This document shows, one piece after another, positions 4,201 to 60,073 of a stretch of 64,000 bases of DNA. The DNA comes from Zootoca vivipara. Its lineage: Eukaryota. The first letter of the stretch is position 1, and each line of letters starts with the position of its first letter. Location of the stretch: the NCBI RefSeq assembly GCF_963506605.1, contig NC_083284.1:28458001-28522000 (forward strand). The letters run 5' to 3'. The notes under the pieces were generated by a model, which ran no database searches, was not told the origin of the DNA, and saw only the letters and a program-made list of their open reading frames with translations. The translations under genes were made by a program, and so were the position numbers.

Positions 4201-4326
4201 TTAGTGGAACATTTTCTTTAGAAGAGGAAAGGTTTGCAGAAATAAAAGTTGCTTCTTTGGGCTTACTCCAAGTTGGCTAAAATGTTCATACAGGCATGCA
4301 GTACCACCCTCTCAAGAGATCATACC

Positions 4327-4800
4327 GGCGACTTCCGGTGAGCTGCGGTCATCGAAGGAAGCGCGGGATAGCCCTCCGGGGAATCCCGAACTTAACGGAG
4401 CCTTTAGAGGTCACGCGAAGGCTACGCGGACCTCAAAAACCTCAGGGGGGGTTACCCTGAGTGTCGTGGCACCCAGCAGCGCCCTGCGTGCTCTCCTTCA
4501 CCCGGTTTTTACTGCGTGGGAGCCGGGAGAAGGATTGAGCTGCGGGCGCGAAGGGGGAGAGACCACTGACTCCGTTAAGTGCAGTCTCTGGCTTCCGATG
4601 GTAAGCAGCAAGCTTCCTTAAATTATAATTAATCTGAGGAATAAAGAAAGCTGAAATAAATTCTGGATTGAAGTTAACAATCGGATTGATGAAGCTGTGG
4701 GGCGCAAAAAGGGAGTCCGTCCCAACAGCGGGGAAAAATGGCGCAGAGAAGTGATCGTAGGAGCTGAGCGACGGAAAGTGAAACTATTTGCCTGCGGAGT
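4327..4800 (+). promoter_or_regulatory. L1 internal promoter / CpG-rich 5' UTR
   Basis: Dense CpGs versus AT-rich flanks; ETS-like ACTTCCGG near the 5' end; YY1-like AAAATGGCG at 4735-4743. Promoter function is inferred from known L1 biology. Confidence 0.6.
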
Positions 4801-5631
4801 GAGTTTTTCAGAAGTCCTTGATTACATTGTAACAAGGCAATTTCTTTAGGGTGGAAAAGAATTGCTTAGAGCTTTTATATTGTTACCTTGTCCCTTTCCT
4901 GGGGGTGGAACTGCAAGTGATCTGGGAACTTTATATTTTCTGCGCTCTAGCCCTGAATGCAGAGGAGCTTTGAGTTGCCTGAGTGCTTTGCCTGTATCGC
5001 TGCAGCACCGAAGGGGAGAAAGACGGAGGCTGCCCCTTTTGTTTTCTTTGCTATAATTAAGAACAAAGTAAAAACGTTTCCCACCAACTGAGAGGCTGGA
5101 AAGGGGGGGGTCGACTTTGGATTAAGCCAGCAAGTGGCTGAAGAGGGGTTTATTGCTGGGGGACTGCGGATCTGGGATTCTCCCTTATTTGGATTAAGCC
5201 TACAAGTGGCTGAAGTATTTGGCTTTTTTTTTCTCTTTCTTTTTTTTTTGGGTTTTATTGGAGCGAATTGTGGATTAAGCCTATAAGTGGCTGAAGAGTT
5301 GCGAGACTTGGCTTCTTTGTTTCAGGTTCCAAGGGTGCTTTGACTGCTGGAGGGATAAAGAAGGAACTTGCTAGAAGGGTTTGATTTATTGTAACTAGAA
5401 ACTGCTGGTTCTCTGTCTCTGGGAGTGGAAAAGTACTGGAAAGACTTGAGGTTTCAGAGTAATCCACCCAGTGGCAGACGGAATAACTGTTGATTCTAGG
5501 TATTGGAATTTATTACAGCGCCATCTGGGGGTGGTTGGATTATTGCAGGTAAATTGTAGGAATTTATTAATACTGGTCCCCCTAGTGGTGAAGAGGGGAA
5601 TTTCCCCTCTTTCCTGTTTTTTTGTAGAAGA

Positions 5632-6690
5632 ATGGCTGGTAAAGAAGAAAGGAAGGCAGCAAGCACACCAAAAGATAGAAGAGGTTCGAAGCAAGAAGAA
5701 GTCAAAGATTTAGAAGCTCTATGGCAAAAAATTAAAGATGAATTTAAACATAGTGAACAACGAATGGATAAGAAATTGGGAGAGATTGATAAGAAGATTG
5801 AAGGAGCGGTGGGAGAATTATCAACCCAAATAAAAGATCTGTCGGTGAGATCCAAAACAATGGAAGAAACAATCAAGAAGACCCAAAAAGAGGTAAAGGA
5901 GGTTAAAAAAGAGACTGACAAAGTGAAAGATAGTATGAAGAAAATGGACCGGGCACATGAACAAATGCTTGATAATTTGGCATTAATTGAAATGAAACAA
6001 AGGCAATTGAATTTGAAATTAAGGGGTATCCCTGAAGAATCAGGAGAAGATATTAAGTCAAGGATAATTGCCGAATTGGCGAAATGGATGGGAAAGACGG
6101 ATGAAGAAGTGAGCCAGACAATTGTGAATGTATTCAGAATTAAGGTAAAATCAGCAAAGGCCAAGGCAAGGAAAGCACCTGGTGACTGCGTGGTGGTTCT
6201 CAATACAATGGAGATGAAAAATGAGATTTTAAGTTTGAGCTTCACCAACAAGCTAATCATCGGAGGCAAGCCTATAATCGTGTTTAAAGAAATTCCTGGA
6301 AGATTTTTGAAAAAACGTGACAATTATAAAGCAATGGTGGCCCTGCTTAGGAAAAATGGAATCCAGCATAGATGGGAATACCCCGAAGGAATAATGTTTT
6401 TTTATAAAGAGAAAAGACATGTGCTGACAAGTATGCATGACATTGGGAAATTCTTGAGAAAGTACGAAAAATTCTTGGGAGAGCTGAGCCCAGACCTGGT
6501 TATCCTAGCTGAAGCGACCGCAGAAGAGGAAGAAGAACCAAAACCACAAAGAAGGAGAAGAAAGAAAAAAGAAGGAGAGGAAGAGAAATCAGAAGAAGAA
6601 GAACAGGAAAAAGAGGAAGAGGATAAAGAGTCAGAGAGTGAAGAAGAGGAAGAAGATAAAGATTTAAGTAAAGAACCCGACCAAGACTAG
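5632..6690 (+). CDS. L1 ORF1p (coiled coil, RRM, CTD, acidic tail), 352 aa
   Basis: Heptad-rich N-terminal half, NLKLRGIPE RRM-start motif, WEYP CTD motif; sits directly upstream of ORF2. Confidence 0.9.
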   Translation: MAGKEERKAASTPKDRRGSKQEEVKDLEALWQKIKDEFKHSEQRMDKKLGEIDKKIEGAVGELSTQIKDLSVRSKTMEETIKKTQKEVKEVKKETDKVKDSMKKMDRAHEQMLDNLALIEMKQRQLNLKLRGIPEESGEDIKSRIIAELAKWMGKTDEEVSQTIVNVFRIKVKSAKAKARKAPGDCVVVLNTMEMKNEILSLSFTNKLIIGGKPIIVFKEIPGRFLKKRDNYKAMVALLRKNGIQHRWEYPEGIMFFYKEKRHVLTSMHDIGKFLRKYEKFLGELSPDLVILAEATAEEEEEPKPQRRRRKKKEGEEEKSEEEEQEKEEEDKESESEEEEEDKDLSKEPDQD

Positions 6691-6724
6691 ATAAAATCTT
6701 ATCTTCCTGATATTAGGAAGTAAA

Positions 6725-9700
6725 ATGGCATCATTGAAGATACATACTTGGAATGTACATGGATTGAATAATAAAGCGAAAAGAAATAAAATTGATCATA
6801 TTTTGAAGAAGAAAAATTTGGATATAATCTGTCTTCAGGAAACACATGTGGCGAAAAAACATAATTATATTCTTAGAAATAAAAGGTTGGGTAAAGAATT
6901 TATTAATTCAGTAGAAAATAAAAAGAGAGGAGTGGTTTTGTATATAAAAGACAAATTGGAACCAAATTTGATGTTTAAAGATGAAGAAGGAAGAGTGATA
7001 GCGGTCCAAATATCGACCCATGGAGAAAAAATGTTGGTGGTGGGAATTTATGCACCGAATGAGAACAAAGCGGAATTTTACAAGAATTTGGAAGAAAGGT
7101 TAGTAGAGTATATGGACCAAAAGATAGTGCTTATGGGTGATTTCAACGGAGTGACAGTACCAGAATTGGACAGGACAAAGAAAAGGAAGAATGAAGGCAA
7201 GTTACCAAAATCCTTCTTTGAATTGGTAGAAAACCTGGGCCTAGTGGATATTTGGAGGTTAAAGCATCCTACGCTTAAACAGTTTACATTCTTCTCAGAA
7301 CCAAATCAAAGTTCTGGAAGAATAGATCATATATGGATCTCCAAAGAACTAGTACCCAGGGTGAGTAAAATAGAGATAATACCACGAACACTATCAGATC
7401 ACAATTCAATATTCATGGAAATGAAAAGCAAAGATCAGAATTCCTTTAGGTGGAGAATGAATGAGGAGCTTTTCGAAGATAAAGAGGTGGTAGTAAAAGC
7501 TAAGAATATCCTGAAAGATTATTTTCATTGGAATTTACATAAAGACACTGGGCTTGATATGGTATGGGATGCAAGTAAAGCAGTAATGAGAGGCTTTCTA
7601 ATACAGCAAAATAGTTTCCTGAAACGAAAGAAAGAAAAGAAGAAGGAGGAAATCCTGAAGTGTCTCATGGAAAATGAGAAAAACCTGATAGATAAACCAG
7701 AGAATCAACAAATCAAATATAACATAAAGATGCTACAGACACAATTCTCCATGTTGATCAGTCAGGAGATAGAATGGAAAATAAAGCAGATGAGACAAAA
7801 AAATTTTGAATTAGCGAACAAAACAGGAAAATTATTGGCATGGCAATTAAGGAAACGTCAAAATCAAAATACGATAGTGAAGATAAATATGGAAGGAAAA
7901 GTGACTGAGGAGCCAAAGGAAATAAAGAAAGCCTTTCAAAAGTTTTATAAAGAGTTGTATTGTAAAAAGAAAGAAGAGGAGAAGAAGATCAGTGATTATT
8001 TAAGCAAACATGGATTGAAACAAATCCCAGAAGAGGAAAGAAAGAAACTCAATAATAGGATAACAAGGCAAGAAGTACACCAGGCAATAATGAGAATGAA
8101 AGTAGGAAAAGCCCCAGGACCAGATGGATTATCAGCAAAATATTATAAAGTTTTAAATGAACAGCTGATACCGATTTTAGAAGAAGTGATGAATGATATT
8201 CTTGCAGGAGGAAAGATCCCAAATACATGGAAGGAAGCGTATATTACATTGATTCCAAAACCAGGAGCGGATGGCTTAGAAGTCAGAAATTATAGACCAA
8301 TTTCTTTATTGAACAACGATTATAAGCTGTTTGCAGATATTATGTCCAAGAGATTGAAAGAAGTTTTGAATGAAATGATATATAAGGACCAAGCTGGTTT
8401 TCTTCCTGGTAGACAGTTAAAGGACAACGTCAGACATATAATAGATGTAATAGAATATCTGGAAACCAAGATAGATAAGCCAGCAGTATTAATGTTTGTG
8501 GATGCGGAGAAAGCATTTGACAATATATCTTGGCAGTTTATGAAGAAAAATCTGGAATCAATGGTTGGCAAAGATTCTTTTTTGAATGGGATTGAGGCAA
8601 TATATTCAGAACAAAAAGCAAGATTGATAATTAATAACACATTAACGGAATATTTTGACATTACAAAAGGAACTAGACAGGGGTGTCCCTTATCCCCTTT
8701 ATTATTCATCATGGTCCTGGAAGTACTATTGAATAGATTAAGAGATCTTTCAACTATTAGAGGAATTAAAGTAGGTGCAAAGCAATTTAAAGTGAAAGCC
8801 TTCGCGGATGATTTGGTCTTAACTCTAGAAAATCCTAAGGAAAGTGTTGCAGCGGCTATAGAAGAAATTGAGAAATTTGGACAATTAGCAGGATTTAAAT
8901 TAAATAGACAGAAAACAAAGGTGATGGCAATGAATATGACGAAAGAGGAAAAGCAAGAGTTACACCTAAAATATGGGTTTGATGTGGCAAAAAAAGTAAA
9001 ATACCTTGGAATATGGATGACAGCAAAGAACATTAACTTATATAGTGATAATTATGAACCAGTATGGAGAGAAATAAAGAAAGACCTGGAAAGGTGGACT
9101 AATATGAACATGTCATTCTTAGGAAGAATAGCAGCAATTAAGATGAATATCCTACCTAAAATGTTATTCTTATTTCAAACTATACCTGTGGTGAAGGGTA
9201 CAAGACAATTTCAAGAATGGCAAAAGATTTTGTCAAGATTTCTCTGGCAGGGGAAAAAACCTAGAATAAAACATAAAATCTTGGTAGACAGAAAAGAAAG
9301 AGGTGGTTTCTCCCTGCCAGACTTAAGACTTTATTATGAAGCGTCTTGTATATGTTGGATTAAAGAGTGGATAACGTTGAAGAATACTGACCTGCTAGAT
9401 TTGGAAGGTTTTAACAATAGATTTGGGTGGCATGCATATTTATGTTATGACAAAAAGAAGTCTCATACTGGGTTTACCAATCATGTGATAAGAAGATCTC
9501 TGTACGAGGTGTGGGAAAGAAATAAAATGCTGTTAGAGACCAAAAAACCATGGTGGGTTTCACCAGCAGAGGTATTAACAGTGAAGAAAGTAAATATGGA
9601 GGGGAGGTGGGCCACTTATGAGGAAATTTTGATAAGAACTGATAAAGGATGGAGACTTAAACCCTATGAAGAAATTAAAGGAGTTTTAACAGGATGGATA

Positions 9701-10474
9701 CAATACCATCAAATAAATGATGTTCTTAGGGAAGACAGGAAAATAGGTTTTGAGGACAAAAGGTCCAAATTCCAAATAGAAGTGCTAGAAGGCAAAACAA
9801 AGCTTCTGTCAAAAATGTACAATTTGTTATTAGAATGGTATACGAAGGATGAGTTGACAAAAGAAGCGATGATCAAGTGGGCAAAAGATTTTGGGCACAA
9901 TATTGATTATGACGCGTGGTTGAAATTATGGACTCAAACGTTGAGATTTACAGCATGTACTGCTTTGAAAGAAAATGTGTATAAGATGATGTATAGATGG
10001 TATTTAACACCAGTTAAACTAGCCAAAATGTATAGAATGAGTGACAAAACTTGCTGGAAATGTAAAGAGAGAGATGGTGAATTTTATCATATGTGGTGGA
10101 CATGCGATAAGGTAAAAAGATTTTGGGAGATGTTATATAATGAGTTGAAAAAGATGTTTAGATATACTTTCCCAAAAAAACCTGAAGCATTTTTACTAGG
10201 AATAATGGGAGGAGAGATTAGAAAAGAAGATCAAGTATTGTTTATGTATGCGACAACCGCGGCTAGGACTTTGTTAGCCCAAAAATGGAAATTACAAGAA
10301 ATTCCAACGATTGAGGAGTGGCAGATTAAAATGATGGACTATGCTGAACTCGCAAGGATGACTTGCAAGATCCGCGACCAGGGGGAGACAAGGTTTCAAA
10401 AAGACTGGAGTAAATATGTGGATTATATGGAGAAAAACTGTAGATCTTTAAAAACACTTGCAGGATTGAAATAA
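6725..10474 (+). CDS. L1 ORF2p (APE endonuclease, reverse transcriptase, Cys-rich domain), 1249 aa
   Basis: TWNVHG, LQETH, GDFN, RIDHI, SDH endonuclease motifs; PGPDG, YRPISLLN, DAEKAFD, RQGCPLSP, FADD, KYLG RT motifs; CWKC..HMWWTC. Confidence 0.97.
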   Translation: MASLKIHTWNVHGLNNKAKRNKIDHILKKKNLDIICLQETHVAKKHNYILRNKRLGKEFINSVENKKRGVVLYIKDKLEPNLMFKDEEGRVIAVQISTHGEKMLVVGIYAPNENKAEFYKNLEERLVEYMDQKIVLMGDFNGVTVPELDRTKKRKNEGKLPKSFFELVENLGLVDIWRLKHPTLKQFTFFSEPNQSSGRIDHIWISKELVPRVSKIEIIPRTLSDHNSIFMEMKSKDQNSFRWRMNEELFEDKEVVVKAKNILKDYFHWNLHKDTGLDMVWDASKAVMRGFLIQQNSFLKRKKEKKKEEILKCLMENEKNLIDKPENQQIKYNIKMLQTQFSMLISQEIEWKIKQMRQKNFELANKTGKLLAWQLRKRQNQNTIVKINMEGKVTEEPKEIKKAFQKFYKELYCKKKEEEKKISDYLSKHGLKQIPEEERKKLNNRITRQEVHQAIMRMKVGKAPGPDGLSAKYYKVLNEQLIPILEEVMNDILAGGKIPNTWKEAYITLIPKPGADGLEVRNYRPISLLNNDYKLFADIMSKRLKEVLNEMIYKDQAGFLPGRQLKDNVRHIIDVIEYLETKIDKPAVLMFVDAEKAFDNISWQFMKKNLESMVGKDSFLNGIEAIYSEQKARLIINNTLTEYFDITKGTRQGCPLSPLLFIMVLEVLLNRLRDLSTIRGIKVGAKQFKVKAFADDLVLTLENPKESVAAAIEEIEKFGQLAGFKLNRQKTKVMAMNMTKEEKQELHLKYGFDVAKKVKYLGIWMTAKNINLYSDNYEPVWREIKKDLERWTNMNMSFLGRIAAIKMNILPKMLFLFQTIPVVKGTRQFQEWQKILSRFLWQGKKPRIKHKILVDRKERGGFSLPDLRLYYEASCICWIKEWITLKNTDLLDLEGFNNRFGWHAYLCYDKKKSHTGFTNHVIRRSLYEVWERNKMLLETKKPWWVSPAEVLTVKKVNMEGRWATYEEILIRTDKGWRLKPYEEIKGVLTGWIQYHQINDVLREDRKIGFEDKRSKFQIEVLEGKTKLLSKMYNLLLEWYTKDELTKEAMIKWAKDFGHNIDYDAWLKLWTQTLRFTACTALKENVYKMMYRWYLTPVKLAKMYRMSDKTCWKCKERDGEFYHMWWTCDKVKRFWEMLYNELKKMFRYTFPKKPEAFLLGIMGGEIRKEDQVLFMYATTAARTLLAQKWKLQEIPTIEEWQIKMMDYAELARMTCKIRDQGETRFQKDWSKYVDYMEKNCRSLKTLAGLK

Positions 10475-11517
10475 ATCCTATGAATTGACCAAACAGTCAA
10501 AAAGGAACTGCAAAAATGTAGTAAACAAGAAACTCGCATGAAGGGAGGGGGGGAAGTCGTAGCTCGGCAGAGCAAAATGTTAGATGAAAATTTATAATGT
10601 TGTGTATAAAAGAATGTTTTTTTTTATTATTTTAATCGGATAAATTGGAAATTGAATAAAAATTATTTAAAAAAAAAAAAATCAAGAGATCATACCAGCA
10701 CCTCAGAATGCATAAGCTTGTTCGTAAGTATCCCCACATGAAAATCTTCCTGCATGCGGAAAACTAAGGCAAAGTTTCCACAAATGAAGTGGTAAACCTC
10801 TATCTGTTCTGTACCAGTTCAGAATGCAGATTGCAGATGGCTGTCATGATTGAATATTATAAGATTATATTTTAAACTTTAACAGCACAATCGTAGGCAT
10901 ATCTACTCAGAAACAGGTCTCACAGAATTCAATGGGCCTTACTTGCACCCTAAGCATTTTTAATTTCTGTTTGCATGTTAATAATTTATTAGCTATATGA
11001 AGAAAAAAATAAGTTAAAATGTATTAATAAGCCTATGATTACAAATGAAGAAAAGTTTATTTTCAGACTAGCTCCCTTTGAAAATAAAAATGAGGATTTC
11101 AGGAGCACTACTTTGCTTCTTTTCTTTAAATGCCGAGAATTTTAATCTGGAAAGCATGTGTCTAAGTATTAAAATAAAAGGCAGATTTAAAACTTTTCCT
11201 TGGAGCAATAAAACGGATGTTCAATTAGTAATAATCCATAATCTTGTTTAAATTTCCAGGTTTAGAAGGGGGGGGGTGAACACCCCAGTTCTATAGACTT
11301 CATGTGCTTTTGCTTAAAGTTTTAAAGGATATCATTAAACATTAAAGATAACAACCATAACTAAAGAGCAATCAGTCAAAACATCAGATGCTGTCAGATT
11401 GTGTAGTCATTGGAGATGGAAATTATTGCAACATTGTCAGGAAACCTAGAACTTAGATCACTGGCAGAGCACGTGCATTGTATCTAGAAGGCTCTAAACT
11501 CAGACTCTAAGCTCAGA

Positions 11518-13183: not shown

Positions 13184-13660
<477 letters not shown>

Positions 13661-15084
13661 TCAAGGCAGGGTTTACCAATGTTCTCCTATCCAGGCAATG
13701 ACCAGATCCAGACATGCTTCGCATCAGAAACGGTGCTGCACTGTGTCCCTTCAAACCATGACCTGGGTCTAAAAAAAATGTGGCCCAGGAAAAAGAACGT
13801 ACTGTCTTAGAAGATCAAAGAAGCACAGCATGTATGTCTGTCAAAGGCATATTTCTGTGGTCAAATGTTAATGTTCACTTCATACAAATGAGGGCCTCGT
13901 TCCCAGTAGGCTACTGATTGCATGGGAAAGATCCACACAATTGGCACAGTCCACATGGTTATAATAGACACACACACAGAGAGAGCCCTGCAATGAGCAA
14001 CTGTGCCACACTGAAACTATTCCCATGACACTGTCTCTGTGTGTGAAGGAGGCCAGAAAGGCTGGGGCATCTATGCTTTAATGTGACTGCGCACTTAAGA
14101 ACAAAAGAACACTAAGTTCTGCATCAAGCAGGGCAACTTCAAAGTACAGCTGCATGATGTTGTCTTAACAAGATATGAATATGACAATCCACCCCCCCCC
14201 CATACTCCTGGTGACAACAGTGCTGACTGGGGGGGGGACTTCTATAACGGTCACTTCATGGCCATTTTTTATGGATAGTCATTAATTGTATTCAAAAGTA
14301 CAGTATGTTTTCCTGACCTCACAGCTGTTCATCATTAGAGCCATCTGGGTGTCACCATCCAATTTAATTACCTCAACCCATTCTATTCATGTATCTTATT
14401 TAACTAAAAGCAGATCAGCTGGATTGCTCCTGCTGTGACTCCTGCTTCCTAACTTCTAGTTAGATGCCTTCAGTGGGTCATAGCCTACTGTATTCCCCCT
14501 CCTCGCAAAAATCAGGGCTATCATGCAAAACAAACAACGAAATGCAAAACATACAATATACCATTTCACTTTCATGCATGGCTGATAATATTACAGAACT
14601 TTCATCCCACATTTTCAAAAGCAAAAGGAAGTTGTATAATGCTGTGATACGACTGTTCTTTAAAAAGTTCATCAAAGGGAGTTTACCCTGATTACACCAC
14701 AATTCATCCCCTAGATTTTCAGTGCCACACATTTAACTGATTTTGGCAGCCACTGGGTTTCAGAAATAAAACTGCCTTGGCTGCCCTGCTGTATAATCCA
14801 TGTTTGGCATATGACAGAGCAATGTTGAATCCTCTCTATTCACTGGAATGTTTGGATGGATGTCAGTCCCTCTGACCATGGTATTCTTGTCTAGAATGAC
14901 CATGCTCCATTAGTTCCCCTCATACTTTGGCAGCGTTACTAAACTGTTAGTCTGATTTCCAGAATCCTTGAACCAGGCCTCAGCCATCTTATGATGTGGA
15001 GCCACATCATGAAAACTTTACATCCACACCATACATTTGAAGCAGTGTGATACCACTTTATGGGTCTTAGTAGATTAGCTATGT

Positions 15085-15620
15085 GGACCCAGGTGGCACT
15101 TTGGGTTAAACCACAGAGCCTAGGGCTTGCTGATCAGAAGGTCGGCGGTTCGAATCCCTGTGACGGGGTGAGCTCCCGTTGCTTGGTCCCAGCTCCTGCC
15201 AACCTAGCAGTTCGAAAGCACATCAAAGTGCAAGTAGATAAATAGGAACCGCTACAGCGGGAAGGTAAACGGCGTTTCCGTGTGCTGCTCTGGTTTGCCA
15301 GAAGCGGCTTTGTCATGCTGGCCACATGACCTGGAAGCTGTACTCCGGCTCCCTCGGCCAATAATGCGAGATGAGCGCGCAACCCCAGAGTCGGTCACGA
15401 CTGGACCTAATGGTCAGGGGTCCCCTTTACCTAACAACTGGGAAGCCATGACTGTTTCAAGTGGTATGATACTTATTTAAATGGTGTGAATGTAGCAAAA
15501 TAATAATAATTATGATATGGTTGCCTACTATAAATGAAGCGGATAATCCGGAGTGTTGCGCGCAACCCCAGAGTCGGTCACGACTGGACCTAATGGTCAG
15601 GGGTCCCTTTACCTTTACTT
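15085..15620 (+). mobile_element. Composite Sauria SINE: full SINE + 127 bp of foreign flank + second SINE 3' tail
   Basis: GGACCCAGGTGGC head, GGTTCGAATCC B box, (TTTACC) tail; 14-bp TSD TAGATTAGCTATGT (15071-15084, 15621-15634). Confidence 0.92.
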
Positions 15621-18600
15621 TAGATTAGCTATGTATGCTTTAACACTGCTGGGAATAAAGTCACCCGAAGAACCAAGGGTATGGGAAGAGTAGTGTACTT
15701 GTAAAATACGATTGCCTCTCTCTTTTCCCACTATCCCATCACCCTGCCTTAGCTCATTAACTCTGAATAAAAGGATTTGAGCAAATATTTTTTAACAAAG
15801 CCCGAAAGCTGTCCCAAGCGCTCCAATTTTCCCATTTCACATCTGTTTGAAACGTGACACTATCTCTTGTGACCCTTGATGTCACTAATCCATGCTGTCA
15901 TCCTTTGGACACTGCAGGAGCTGTTGGGACTCAAACATTTAATTAATCCAGTTGACATTTTAATGTTCTGAGGCTTTTTGCATTTCAAGGGGAAAGTTTG
16001 GAAAGATTCATAAGCAGATGACTGCTGACAGGGCAGTGCTGAGATTCCCGCCCCCCCCTTTCATTCTTTGTTTACAGAGAAGAGCTTTGCTTTAATGGGG
16101 TGGCTTTAGGGCTGATAAGAACGCTGTTCTCAATGTCCTTTGTAACCTTAGCATTTGTAGCTCTTGAAGAATATGGCTTGGATCTCGACTCACATGAGGA
16201 GGAACCATCTCAACCAACAACCCACTCCACTGCAGTCCCCTTACACAATATCCTACATAATTACAAAGGGTCTCCCAACCCCAAAATTCTGAGGGGCTGC
16301 AGGGGAAAGATGAAGGTGAGAATTCCCCATTCAATGAATGCGAAAGTTAGGATTCAAGAAACTGTCAGTAGATGCTGGTAGAGGGCGACACTGGCATCCG
16401 ATAACAAAATGTTATTCCTGCTTTGACCTGCATTGGATCATCCATCATATAGATGTGTCCTCATTCTTTTGTTGCTTAGCTCAGGATCCCATACAACAGA
16501 CAGTTTTAGCTCTTACAGCTAAATCATAGACCTCAGGATTAATTAGTGGATTAGTGAAATGCTGCTAAGACTGATGGAAGTGGTGTTTGTGTGTATATAT
16601 CAACTGCAAGTCTCTGTGTGTGTTTTTCTGGACACTGCTACATGTTGCTCAGCTTGGTCACAATTTGAATTCCTGCCACAGCTGCGGTGAAATGAAATTC
16701 ATCCTCCCAAGCAGCAATTAGCATTAGTGTCCCATTTTACACCAATGATATATTTTATTTTATTTTACTGCATCAGGAAACAAATTTTACAGAGACAGAA
16801 GCTGGGGAGAGAAGACTTAAACCCTCCACCCCAGCTCCCTGGTGAGCAGTATTTAAGTTTTAAAAACAGGCAAACAATGTGATTGCTCAGTTATCCAATT
16901 TATGAAGTACACAGAGATGCTTCAGAATAAGAATCTGTTGTGGTAGCACAGGATACAACAACTGCAGCCATAGGAATGCACAATGCTGACAATGAGAGCT
17001 GGAGATTTTTTTTTAAAAAAATGTTGGTTCCAGTTATTTTCAGTTTTCATAAGCAAAAGTTAACATTATTTCACAGTTGTTGAATATTTCTGCAGCTTAC
17101 TTTGTTATGGTTTGACAAAGGAGCTTTACAAAGAGCTTAAAATATTCCCTCATTTTTCAATCTCTATGTATAAGTAAGTACCATTAATTTCAGTGCTTTC
17201 AAAGCACTTTGAAATTACATTCTTAGGCCCATTTAAAATATGACTTTCAAGGTGCATAAACAATTCATTTATTTTTTAAAAAAACCAGATTTTTAACATT
17301 CCATTCCATTCCAACAATTGTCTGTTGTTGGATTTTTTAAAAACTGGGTTTTTAATTAAATCTCAGTACTAACATATTAAAATTTACACTTACATTGGTT
17401 TATAAAAATGTATCATGAGCACCCATCAGATTATCTTAAAATCCATTTAACCATTAAAAAAAAAATTTCATCATGGGAATAAATATCTAACAGGGCAATC
17501 CTATCAGACCCACATCACACTGACCAATGGCCAGGGCTGATTCAAGCTGTAATTCAACAAAACCAGGAGGGCACCATGTTGGCTAATCCATACATACAGG
17601 ATCAATCAATTGATGTGTTTTTATTTTTCACAAACCAAAATATGTTGTGAAATAAGTAATAAGCCAAAATTAACAGAAGTAGGCTTTGCATTGCCCACAA
17701 GCTGCATCTAGTCAGCCACGGCTTTTCCACTTCTGTATATTTCTCAAAGCATTATATGTGAATGAGCCCTTCGTGATCCTGCATGTGCCTGTTTATATAT
17801 TGGGAGTGGGAAGGAATTATGCAACACCTGAACAGACTGTGAAAATTCAAACCTTGTGGTATAATCCGAAATGGAGATTGTGTCTGTAACTCAGTTTTAT
17901 GCAGTTACATAAGAATTGGTTGTTTTCAACATGAAGATGTTTTGCATGCAATGATAAAGTTAGCCATGGCTTAGCATTATGACCACAAACTGCAGCAAGC
18001 TTTGGACTCATGTGTTCCCTGCCCATCCTCCAGGGCTGCCACAAAGTGTTCAGAAGCATCCAATCCCACTTTAGATCAACCACAGTTTAGCATCATGTCC
18101 AGCCTCCCAATGGTGCCTAAGCTTAACTGTCTTAAAACTATGGTTTGAAGTTGGCTTGTTTCAACAAACTACAGAATAAGGAAGATTCAGCACAGTTTGC
18201 CGGGTTCAGATGGCACTCGAAAATGGAAACAAAGGCTTCTAGATCTTCATGGCTGCGCCAGCGAAAGAGAGGTGAGAAGGAAGCACATGAACACTAGTCT
18301 TCCGCTTGTAAAACTGGTGGTGAGTCTGATAAAACAGATTTTCTTTATAGAACTGAAACAGATTGGGTTTCACCAGACTTCATCACTCCCACACTACATC
18401 GTTGCTGATAAAAAGAGAAATCCAGAATATCAATCCTGAATTCTGAATGTTTTAAATCAGAGTATATCCTAAATCAGATAACAGGAGGAAGAGAAGCATC
18501 AGCAATCCAGCACTACAGTACCAAACCACGACCACAGCCTATCTACAAAATCAAGGTAATTCTCCTGGGCAGGAGGTCATGGGAGGTGAAGGAGACGGGG

Positions 18601-30139: not shown

Positions 30140-31650
30140 CACCTGGGTGCTTGCCCAGATGACAAGACACCCCTCTCAGCCTTGCTGGTGTGGTCCAAAG
30201 GAAAGCAGAGCAATGCATTTGGCACCAGCTTGGCTACAGGAGTTGCTGGATGGAGGAAAGCAAGGCACTCTCCAACTGCTGTCCAACTCCACTCTGGATT
30301 TGTATAGGGTTTACTCTTTAGCTCCCTCCCTCCACAAGATATCGCTCAAGGCAGCAGAGGTTTAGGATCAGAGTTTTCCTTCTCCTGGATGGGCTACCTT
30401 CCCAGGTCAATGAGCCCCACCTGCCTCTCACTTAGAATCATAGAGTTGGAAGAGACCACAAGGGCCATCCAGTCCAACCCCCTGCCAAGCAGGAAACACC
30501 ATCAAAGCATTCTTGACATATGGCTGTCAAGCCTCTGCTTAAAGACCTCCAAAGAAGGAGACTCCACCACACTCCTTGGTAGCAAATTCCACTGCCGAAC
30601 AGCTCTTACTGTCAGGAAGTTCTTCCTAATGTTTAGGTGGAATCTTCTTTCTTGAAGTTTGAATCCATTGCTCCGTGTCCGCTTCTCTGGAGCAGCAGAA
30701 AACAATCTTTCTCCCTCCTCCATATGACATCCTTTCATATATTTGAACATGGCTATCATATCACCCCTTAACCTTCTCTTCTCCAGGCTAAACATACCCA
30801 GCTCCCTAAGCCGTTCCTCATAAGGCATCGTTTCCAGGCCTTTGACCATTTTGGTTGCCCTCTTCTGGACACGTTCCAGCTTCTCAGTATCCTTCTTGAA
30901 CTGTGGTGCCCAGAACTGGACACAGTACTCCAGGTGAGGTCTGACCAGAGCAGAATACAGTGGTACTATTACTTCCCTAGATCTAGATGCTATACTCCTA
31001 TTGATGCAGCCCAGAATTGCATTGGCTTTTTTAGCTGCTGCATCACACTGCTGACTCATGTCAAGTCTGTGGTCTACCAAGACTCCTAGATCCTTTTCAC
31101 ATGTACTGCTCTCAAGCCAGGTGTCACCCATCCTGTATTTGTGCCTTTCATTTTTTTTGCCCAAGTGTAGTACCTTACATTTCTCCTTGTTAAAATTCAT
31201 CTTGTTTGCTTTGGCCCAGTTGTCTAATCTGTTAAGGTCATTTTGAAGTGTGATCCTGTCCTCTGGGGTATTAGCCACCGCTCCCAATTTGGTGTCGTCT
31301 GCAAACTTGCTCAGGATGCCCTCAAGCCCATCATCCAAGTCATTGATAAAGATGTTGAATAAGACTGGGCCCAAGACAGAACCCTGTGGCACCCCACTAG
31401 TCACTACTCTCCAGGATGAGGAGGAGCCATTGATGAGCACCCTTTGGGTTCAGTCAGTAAGCCAGTTACAAATCCACTGAATGGTAGCATTGTCTAGCCC
31501 GCATTTTACCAGCTTCTTTACAAGAATATCATGGGGCACCTTGTCAAAGGCCTTGCTGAAATCAAGATAGGCTACATCCACAGCGTTCCCTTCATCCCTT
31601 CAGCATGTGCAGAAAGCACCTTCTTGACCCTTGGAACCACTATGGGTCGC
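30140..31650 (-). mobile_element. Older repeat (RTE-like 5' sequence) interrupted by the CR1
   Basis: ggtagcccatccaggagaaggaaaactctg motif resembles RTE-clade 5' regions; sequence appears to resume after the CR1 (ccttcagcatgtgcagaaa). Confidence 0.35.
30433..31596 (-). mobile_element. Young 5'-truncated CR1 LINE (RT C-terminus + 3' UTR)
   Basis: [38 protein letters not shown] motifs; ORF 30502-31440; one TGA (likely from CGA) just upstream; ends ccttccaactctatgattcta. Confidence 0.95.
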
Positions 31651-53413: not shown

Positions 53414-54592
53414 CTAAGCCAGAAACAAAAAATACCACCAACAGCTTTAATAAAGAAGTACAAAGGAAGAGGCCAAATGTTTTCACTGCCTGTGCCATTT
53501 TTCACAGGCCATTTGATGGACACAAGAATTTTACACTTTTACCCCACCTCAAATGTATTATGTTACAGGACAGCTCTGTGGGTGCCCTACAGAAGTTTTT
53601 TTCCCCTGTGGAATGTAGCTCCAAGAAAGTTTTGGCTGCTAAATAAATAAATAAATAAAGCGATCCAATTATATTATATCACCTAATATAATCAATAAGA
53701 ACATATCTATTTATTAGCCTCCAGTTCAGAATGCAACAACAGTTTAGTTATTAATTACTGATTATCTGCTGTGTTTACAATAAGCAATTATGAGGAATAA
53801 ATCCATAGTTTAGCTTTCACCTAGCTTGTGCCCTCCAAATGTTTTAGGCTACAACTCCCAAACATCTGAAGGGAACCAGGTTGGCGAAGGCAGCCACAGT
53901 CCATAGTTTACAATGATTTTTGTCCCATAGGCTTAAATGAGTCTCAGTGAATTCAGGCAATGCTGTGGAAGAGTTGAAACAGTGTCCAGAGTCAGGAATA
54001 GACTGGATGAGGGCCAATAAACTGAAGATCGTTTCAGACTTCAGACAGTGATACAGAAGATGAATAAAAATGTGCTGTGCTTTCTCTACCCCTGCTCCCA
54101 ATAATGTTTATTTTAAAGTTATGTTTTTATTATGAATTTTTTTGGATTGGATCATATGTGTGATCTTTGCTGTCTATTTCGGCAGTTTCTTGCAAACTGC
54201 CTTGTGTATAGTAATGTGGAAAGGCAGTATACAAATTAAGAGTGGAAAGAAATGGAAAATGTTCCCTTGCCAACTTCCCCCCAGAAACTCCCTCAGCTCT
54301 CGGCATTGTACCTTTGCCACCAGAGGGGGCAGAAGACATACCAGCTTGACCTAAGTCCAGTCAAGAAATAGAGGGTGACCTCTTTAATCAAAGTTACACC
54401 CTGGAAGAGATGTGTCCTGCAGGGCTATTTCAGCCTTCAACAAGTTTCAGACCAGCACTGAAGCAACACTCCGGATTATCCGCTTCATTTATAGTAGGCA
54501 ACCATATCATAATTATTATTATTTTGCTACATTCACACCATTTAAATAAGTATCATACCACTTGAAACAGTCATGGCTTCCCAGTTGTTAGG

Positions 54593-54936
54593 TAAAGGGG
54601 ACCCCTGACCATTAGGTCCAGTCGTGACCGACTCTGGGGTTGCGCGCTCATCTCACATTATTGGCCGAGGGAGCCGGAGTACAGCTTCCAGGTCATGTGG
54701 CCAGCATGACAAAGTCGCTTCTGGCAAACCAGAGCAGCACATGGAAACGCCGTTTACCTTCCCGCTGTAGCGGTTCCTATTTATCTACTTGCATTTTGAC
54801 GTGCTTTCGAACTGCTAGGTTGGCAGGAGCTGGGACCAAGCAACGGGAGCTCACCCCGTCACAGGGATTCGAACCGCCGACCTTCTGATCAGCAAGCCCT
54901 AGGCTCAGTGGTTTAACCACAGCACCACCTGGGTCC
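54593..54936 (-). mobile_element. Full-length Sauria SINE
   Basis: ~97% identical to 15085-15430 in reverse orientation; TSD CCAGTTGTTAGG at 54581-54592 and 54937-54948. Confidence 0.93.
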
Positions 54937-54989
54937 CCAGTTGTTAGGAGACCCCTATTTCCTTCCGAAAGCTATAATGTCAACAACAA

Positions 54990-59104: not shown

Positions 59105-60073
59105 TGTTGTTGTTGTTTAGTCGTTTAGTCGTGTCCGACTCTTCGTGACCCCATGGACCAGAGCACGCCAGGCACTCCTGTCTTGCACTGCCTCCCGCAG
59201 TTTGGTCAAACTCATGTTCGTAGCTTCGAGAACACTGTCCAACCATCTTGTCCTCTGTCGTCCCCTTCTCCTAGTGCCCTCAATCTTTCCCAAAATCAGG
59301 GTCTTTTCCAAGGATTCTTCTCTTCTCATGAGGTGGCCAAAGTATTGGAGCCTCAGCTTCAGGATCTGTCCTTCCAGGGAGCACTCAGGGCTGATTTCCT
59401 TAAGAATGGATAGGTTTGATCTTCTAGCAGTCCATGGGACTCTCAAGAGTCTCCTCCAGCACCATAATTCAAAAGCATCAATTCTTCGGCGATCAGCCTT
59501 CTTTATGGTCCAGCTCCCACTTCCATACATCACTACTGGGAAAACCATAGCTTTAACTATACGGACCTTTGTCGGCAAGGTGATGTCTCTGCTTTTTAAG
59601 ATGCTGTCTAGGTTTGTCATTGCTTTTCTCCCAAGAACCAGGCGTCTTTTAATTTCGTGACTGCTGTCACCATCTGCAGTGATCAAGGAGCCCAAGAAAG
59701 TAAAATCTCTCACTGCCTCCATTTCTTCCCCTTCTATTTGCCAGGAGGTGATGGGACCAGTGGCCATGATCTTGGTTTTTTTGATGTTGAGCTTCAGACC
59801 ATATTTTGCGCTCTCCTCTTTCACCCTCATTAAAAGGTTCTTTAATTCCTCCTCGCTTTCTGCCATCAAGGTTGTGTCATCTGCATATCTGAGGTTGTTG
59901 ATATTTCTTCCGGCAATCTTAATTCCGGCTTGGGATTCATCTAGTCCAGCCTTTCGCATGATGAATTCTGCATATAAGTTAAATAAGCAGGGAGACAATA
60001 TACAACCTTGTTGTACTCCTTTCCCAATTTTGAACCAATCAGTTGTTCCATATCCAGTTCTAACTGTAGCTTC
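59105..60073 (-). mobile_element. 5'-truncated BovB (RTE-clade) LINE with uninterrupted RT C-terminus
   Basis: EATVRTGYGTTDWFKIGKGVQQGCILSPCLFNLY, NLRYADDTTL, FELWCWRRLLRVPW, HGVTKSRTRLND*; (CAA)n tail. Confidence 0.95.

Follow-up and report, generated by a model that had tools for sequence, protein, structure and literature searches.

How does a lizard SINE come to carry, inside its own target-site duplication (TSD), a perfect copy of the DNA flanking another SINE of the same gene? The question is raised by a composite element in the window (the whole 64,000-nucleotide stretch of the Zootoca vivipara genome that was analysed), for which an earlier note had offered two answers. In the first, a Pol III read-through transcript of the other SINE was carried along by 3' transduction, with a template switch of the reverse transcriptase (RT); in the second, a DNA break inside a pre-existing SINE was repaired by copying from a nearby homologous SINE and beyond it into its flank.

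A composite SINE within a single TSD

The recipient, as we call the composite, is an intronic element consisting of a full SINE (15085-15432), 127 bp of foreign DNA and a second SINE 3' end, all lying inside one 14-bp TSD, TAGATTAGCTATGT (Table 1). The anatomy described in the earlier note, with its coordinates, holds. The second 3' end begins with 47 nt of SINE body before its tail, so that the copied flank is not joined directly to the tail, and the net gain of the recipient amounts to 183 bp. The further remark that a normal SINE is restored when 15375-15557 is deleted holds by construction, and we give it no evidential value.

Table 1. Features of the recipient and donor SINEs and of their host gene (positions in the window).
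Feature	Position	Strand	Remarks
Recipient 5' TSD	15071-15084	+	Starts with TA; TTT run about 11 nt upstream
SINE 5' body proper to the recipient, of an older lineage	15085-15307	+	9 differences from the donor; presumed B-box-like motif at 15147-15157
SINE 3' part, putatively donor-derived for the most part	15308-15432	+	CpG difference at 15367; exact from 15368
127-bp copy of the flank downstream of the donor, with the remainder of the donor's TSD	15433-15559	+	Identical
Closing junction, imperfect match to SINE 15361-15376	15543-15559	+	11/17, one gap; ends in GC
Second SINE 3' end, TTTACC-type tail	15558-15620	+	Presumably the recipient's original end
Recipient 3' TSD	15621-15634	+	Empty site in organism B
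Donor's downstream flank, template of the 127 bp	54463-54589	-	Exact match to the recipient
Donor SINE, youngest subfamily	54590-54936	-	Own TSD at 54580-54592 and 54936-54948
Host gene, PRDM5-like	1231-61926	-	PR-domain end near 61.8 kb; zinc-finger exons
PRDM5-like zinc-finger exons	near 60.7, 57.7, 49.1, 47.4, 35.9, 33.0, 27.2, 13.5 and 1.3 kb	-	

The 3' tail is of the (ACCTTT)n type, a feature of Sauria/Squam1 SINEs (PMC13295347 section 3.3), and the TSD of the recipient bears the Tn-TA signature described in the same paper; for the donor a TA start is possible and the TTT lies about 21 nt upstream, a poor fit. The family name used here rests on these tail and TSD features together with the label given in the earlier note. 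When Rfam was searched for a tRNA-related head or another RNA there were no matches at E ≤ 1, and among 11 short matches in 1.66 Mb to the SINE 3' end, a part that Sauria/Squam1 SINEs have in common with the Bov-B LINE, no clear LINE partner was seen. The motif in the 5' body that we take to be B-box-like was judged by eye.

The two SINEs are intronic and belong to a single PRDM5-like gene on the minus strand, in keeping with the earlier claim that they share a gene; 28 of 29 residues of its PR domain are identical to the PRDM5 PR domain of PDB 6xaz. The nearest exon found has its acceptor at 13548, about 1.5 kb from the recipient. This is a single intronic event with no effect shown on the gene, and the structure is probably a neutral scar. 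Recipient 15085-15559 and donor 54463-54936 make up a 475-bp inverted pair, 98% complementary, in the pre-mRNA around at least five exons; speculatively, such a pair could favour double-stranded RNA, editing or back-splicing.

Several other elements were seen in the surroundings. One intron of the PRDM5-like gene holds, in antisense orientation and 4.4 kb from the recipient, a full-length L1-like LINE of about 6.35 kb (4327-10681, plus strand) with a 15-bp TSD (4312-4326 and 10682-10696) and a poly(A). Its ORF1 (376 aa between stops) and its ORF2 (1259 aa, with endonuclease and RT) are open, and the element looks recently active. Two young RT-coding families are represented by truncated copies (59105-60073 and 30433-30995), and several copies of 98-99% identity lie within the surrounding 1.66 Mb. 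Contig G000:C9 also holds three very young LTR elements of 4.9-5.8 kb (window-relative 174404-179320, 194163-199970 and 409808-414768), with direct repeats 99.7-100% identical, TG...CA ends and 5-bp TSDs, and a cluster of near-identical direct duplications at window-relative -145751 to -137391 (1486 bp at 99.6%, 773 bp and 471 bp).

The donor is the nearest close copy

From 15368 to 15559 the recipient is the reverse complement of 54463-54654 with 0 differences, which bears out the 192 bp of perfect identity noted before and sets the minimum copied tract at that length. Over the 283 bp upstream of this exact tract, donor and recipient differ at 10 places (9 substitutions and 1 indel), where about 10 had been counted in the 5' SINE body. 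Since the SINE at 54.6 kb has a 13-bp TSD of its own it is a regular insertion and the donor, and the direction of transfer proposed in the earlier note, from donor to recipient, is supported.

When the 1.44-Gb genome was searched with the 127 bp there were 2 full-length matches among the best 40 of 252 candidates, as many as the earlier note had predicted, and the other 38 of these 40 were partial, matching an old repeat in the first ~65 bp. A search with the unique part of the flank plus the junction returned the two loci and no others (2/2 candidates), and the junction was spanned by the recipient only.

An established composite subfamily is ruled out by this count of 2/2 for the unique part of the flank. 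Ruled out as well are a nested insertion with a 58-bp TSD, because donor letters and the TSD of the donor are found in the first copy (at L248, which is truly nested, the TSD is short and normal), and an inversion between the two SINEs, because matching TSDs are kept at both. The extra C in the donor's tail is not private to the donor and was dropped as a marker: it is present in 26 of 28 copies chosen by likeness to that 3' stretch, and in 1 of 54 in another set chosen by likeness to both elements.

An old repeat has left fragments both upstream of the recipient (15020-15060) and, in inverted orientation, within the copied flank (15445-15500); they are not collinear with the pairing, and no role is shown for them.

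The donor is also the closest of its kind in distance. In the 1.66 Mb around the window there are 17 copies at least 94% alike, including the recipient, and of the 16 others the donor is the nearest at 39 kb, the next being 51 kb away; the probability that a random donor would lie within 40 kb is P ~6e-5. A survey of the same 1.66 Mb covered 198 ends of 99 SINE pieces (89 merged loci), and unique flank was common to the donor-recipient pair only, so that such a composite is found at 1 of 89 local SINE loci. The same survey gave two other matches, one between two pieces of one diverged copy, which is SINE-internal, and one between two older SINEs on G000:C9 (window-relative -691489 to -691050 and -465021 to -464599), which have a common internal insertion of about 100 bp, 83-87% alike, and probably represent an old subfamily. 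Around young copies genome-wide, 5 of 81 loci have a second same-strand SINE piece within 400 bp, and these we judged, from coordinates and ends alone, to be neighbours or nested insertions. Young SINEs inserted into or adjoining older copies of the same family were seen at L248, L012, L254 and L042.

The 5' body of the recipient belongs to an older lineage

We compared the recipient with two sets of copies: 25 local copies, chosen only by position and at least 90% identity, and 54 copies drawn from the recipient and donor searches, hence chosen by likeness to both. In the search with the recipient body, 13 copies outscored the donor among the best 40 of 680; in the search with the donor, the recipient was absent from the best 40 of 2098 candidates. 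The donor resembles the 5' body of the recipient less closely than 11 of the 54 copies do, and the nearest copy of the donor differs from the donor at 2 sites. The states T15101, G15103, A15222, G15228 and G15280 are shared by the recipient, in varying combinations, with L012, L014, L015, L019, L021 and L022, the same six copies with which it is grouped in a tree (support 87/91, with the bootstrap unsettled).

G15103, A15115, G15228 and G15280 occur in 10, 11, 12 and 14 of the 25 local copies, respectively, and together in 4 of them, the older ones; the donor has none, so descent of the recipient's body from the donor would need four reversions. Judged from these comparisons, the 5' body is not donor-descended; it belongs to an older lineage and has kept four ancestral subfamily states lost in the donor. 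Within the recipient there is a contiguous switch of subfamily-diagnostic states, a feature of SINE-SINE gene conversion. The differences from the donor cluster in the 5' part (P=0.012 for a 3'-anchored perfect run of at least 192 bp with CpG sites shuffled apart, and P=0.046 for such a run anywhere), and this clustering is modest evidence on its own.

Where the copied tract begins is less sharply defined. G15340 and T15344 are common to donor and recipient. T15344 is found in none of the 25 local copies, none of the 28 copies chosen by the 3' stretch (the set used for the extra C) and none of the 6 in the recipient's group, and in 20 of the 54 copies chosen by likeness to both elements; the pair of states occurs in 6 of those 54, 4 of them with G15103, which makes the start of the tract uncertain. 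The likelier reading of these letters is that the tract starts somewhere in 15308-15340 and would measure about 220-250 bp, the donor having since changed at one CpG, 54655.

The closing junction and the proposed mechanism

The earlier note had described the junction that closes the copied piece as a 2-nt GC microhomology. The GC is shared, and the likeness is longer: beyond it, the final 17 nt copied from the flank agree with SINE 15361-15376 at 11 of 17 positions with one gap (13/18 with three gaps by hand count). A score this high was reached by 0.1-1% of 1500 random flank/SINE pairs across five scoring schemes, and among random pairs already sharing the last 2 nt, 1-6 of 93 equalled the real match. 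The match is borderline for microhomeology as defined in the excerpted text of PMC6902434 (70%, 2-nt gap). It fits a right end that retained sequence upstream of 15375, meaning a break further 5', in agreement with the start of the tract. The DNA fold of 15340-15432 (z=-2.2) places the junction between two hairpins, and it was given no weight.

Repair of DNA within a pre-existing SINE, the second answer of the earlier note, is supported by the older-lineage 5' body, by a donor that is the nearest close copy and by the imperfect match at the closing junction. We consider it likely that a break or stall in a resident SINE led to pairing with the nearest highly similar paralog, over-copying into the flank of that paralog and rejoining by microhomeology. 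The recipient would first have inserted as a normal SINE. A break or stalled fork at about 15308-15345 would then have left a 3' end on the left side to pair with the nearest copy of at least 94% identity, 39 kb off and inverted; some 220-250 nt would have been synthesised, taking the new strand past the tail and TSD of the donor and on for 127 bp of the flank; and this strand would have rejoined the right end via the 17-nt imperfect match ending in GC, bypassing the homology of the tail and leaving two 3' ends. One-sided invasion was reportedly observed in mammalian cells by Tremblay in 2000 and by Richardson and Jasin, also in 2000. The product would be the same whether it came from one-sided synthesis-dependent strand annealing (SDSA) combined with end joining or from template switching during replication, and the two are inseparable here.

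Could the template have been RNA instead? The right end of the break would in that case have been primed at the 17-nt match on nascent PRDM5-like pre-mRNA (or on read-through RNA of the donor), reverse transcription would have crossed flank and tail to reach the SINE body, and resolution by homology would have followed. Both loci lie in one transcription unit, donor and host gene share a strand, so that the pre-mRNA is the right template for the right end, and the L1-like element with open ORFs is close by. That strand fit has a 50% prior, however, and about 300 bp of 97% homology is a likelier starting point than a 17-nt imperfect match. Moreover, the copied piece ends without a TA, a separate TSD or an (ACCTTT)n tail, unlike Sauria SINE insertions, which have TA and their own tail (PMC13295347 sections 3 and 4.1). 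We regard RNA-templated repair in cis as improbable. If true, the locus would be a germline fossil, a SINE of a downstream intron patched off the nascent transcript with sequence of an upstream intron, with SINE homology as the guide.

An empty site in a related species and the contig evidence

Of 24 listed runs, four were compared as contigs: three from the same species, belonging to three studies (X1, X16 and X18), and one from a related species, organism B (X5). In organism B, whose flanks are about 3-6% diverged, one contig joins 15070 to 15621, giving a clean empty site with one TSD copy. In X1, X16 and X18, contigs reach into the SINE from either outer flank and are unbroken at the point where the path of an empty allele would diverge. 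A plain, unconverted SINE in the same TSD was seen in none of these three runs, and organism B is without the SINE altogether.

The composite structure is present in the assembly; for its inner junction the contig evidence is mixed, and this bears on the possibility of an assembly or polishing artefact. No bridge of the inner junction was found among the contigs listed for any run, and in X16 and X18 a contig passes 15559 unbroken and continues for 357 nt into the donor flank, which we infer to reflect either a sample without the junction or graph cleaning that cut a low-depth edge into a repeat of million-fold depth. Polishing, too, could have erased differences between the two copies. Against an artefact, a 116-bp contig of X1 stops precisely at 15559, the point of divergence between donor and recipient paths, and so implies a branch. 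The depths, which repeats may have inflated, are 1.86x single copy for the tail-to-flank contig of X16 and, for the flank contig, 1.38x in X16 and 1.35x in X18 (1.19 being expected for two loci and 1.0 for one), and they lean towards two loci. In X1 the 5' contig stops at 15097 instead of 15114 and the flank contig has a depth of 1.26x, a weak hint that this sample has two alleles. Taken with the break in X1 and these depths, an artefact seems improbable to us.

Retrotransposition as an alternative source

A single retrotransposition, the first answer of the earlier note, would have RT primed on the tail of one SINE RNA and then switched to a read-through transcript of the donor. Everything indeed lies within one TSD, the outgroup is empty, and the 127 bp contain no TTTT, as had been remarked. 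The first TTTT lies 330 nt past the donor, 203 nt beyond the end of the copied piece, so Pol III read-through would not end at 15559. The body, being of another lineage, would need the four reversions to ancestral states or a third template, and landing 39 kb from the source is left unexplained. The 11/17 likeness at the closing junction and the absence of a SINE tail where the copied piece stops also speak against simple 3' transduction. On these grounds, such an origin is disfavoured and we hold it to be very unlikely. The mosaic would also be explained if the element had arisen long ago by transduction from the donor and an older-lineage copy had afterwards converted its 5' body. Partial SINE conversions are reported for Alu in excerpts of PMC554112, but this scenario takes two rare events, accounts neither for the 39-kb proximity nor for the second tail, and is highly improbable.

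Comparison with known systems

The class of mechanism favoured here, repair within a resident SINE, is already known from mammals. Going by the excerpts of Pace et al. 2009 (Pace, Sen, Batzer and Feschotte; PMC2671141), 824 repair-mediated duplications lie inside human TEs, with a mean of 162 bp and donors at <5 kb; others occur in chicken, zebrafish and mammals, and 58 of 1136 were intrachromosomal with a donor farther than 5 kb. The lizard case resembles them in being a short single-locus copy inside a TE (183 bp net), more than 50 bp long and with one other genomic place on the same chromosome, and in having microhomology at a breakpoint and no poly(A) tail; SDSA was the route that Pace et al. 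proposed. It is unlike them in that the donor lies at 39 kb rather than in their confident class of <5 kb, and in that one junction is long paralog homology, so that the host SINE is part-converted and its 3' end doubled. Because the donor falls outside the operational cut-off of 5 kb, the case works like a repair-mediated duplication without being a member of that set. Table 3 of the same paper lists no squamate. In the main text of open papers our searches turned up no account of a squamate SINE having made such a capture, and two lizard SINE papers (PMC10670947 and PMC10702118) describe, in their excerpted text, shared flanks and SINE-derived tandem repeats and give no such mechanism there.

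Three other systems share part of the picture, as far as the excerpts of their sources go. In the Alu-Alu and LINE-LINE template switches at PLP1 (PMC6902434) there is likewise a chimeric-repeat junction of opposed copies, together with an imperfect short junction over a long distance; those are large pathogenic human copy gains, whereas here the excursion is about 0.2 kb and returns into the same SINE. In L1/SVA 3' transduction (PMC9311842) an element and its downstream flank reappear inside a TSD, as the whole unit does here; unlike there, the body does not descend from the source locus, no tail directly follows the flank and the copy does not end at a terminator. A SINE with the flank of another SINE inside its TSD can mimic 3' transduction, and the pattern could be searched for genome-wide to learn how far ectopic repair reaches and whether shared transcription plays a part.

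The third system, gene conversion in Alu Ye (PMC554112), also replaced the 3' part of an older element from another subfamily while the TSD was kept, but in the excerpted account its donor could not be named and no flank was gained. After SINE-SINE conversion the donor can normally not be traced. In this case the over-run identifies it and gives its distance and orientation, the tract length and the closing junction, making this a clean natural example in a lizard and a real, well-resolved single event that is unusually easy to trace.
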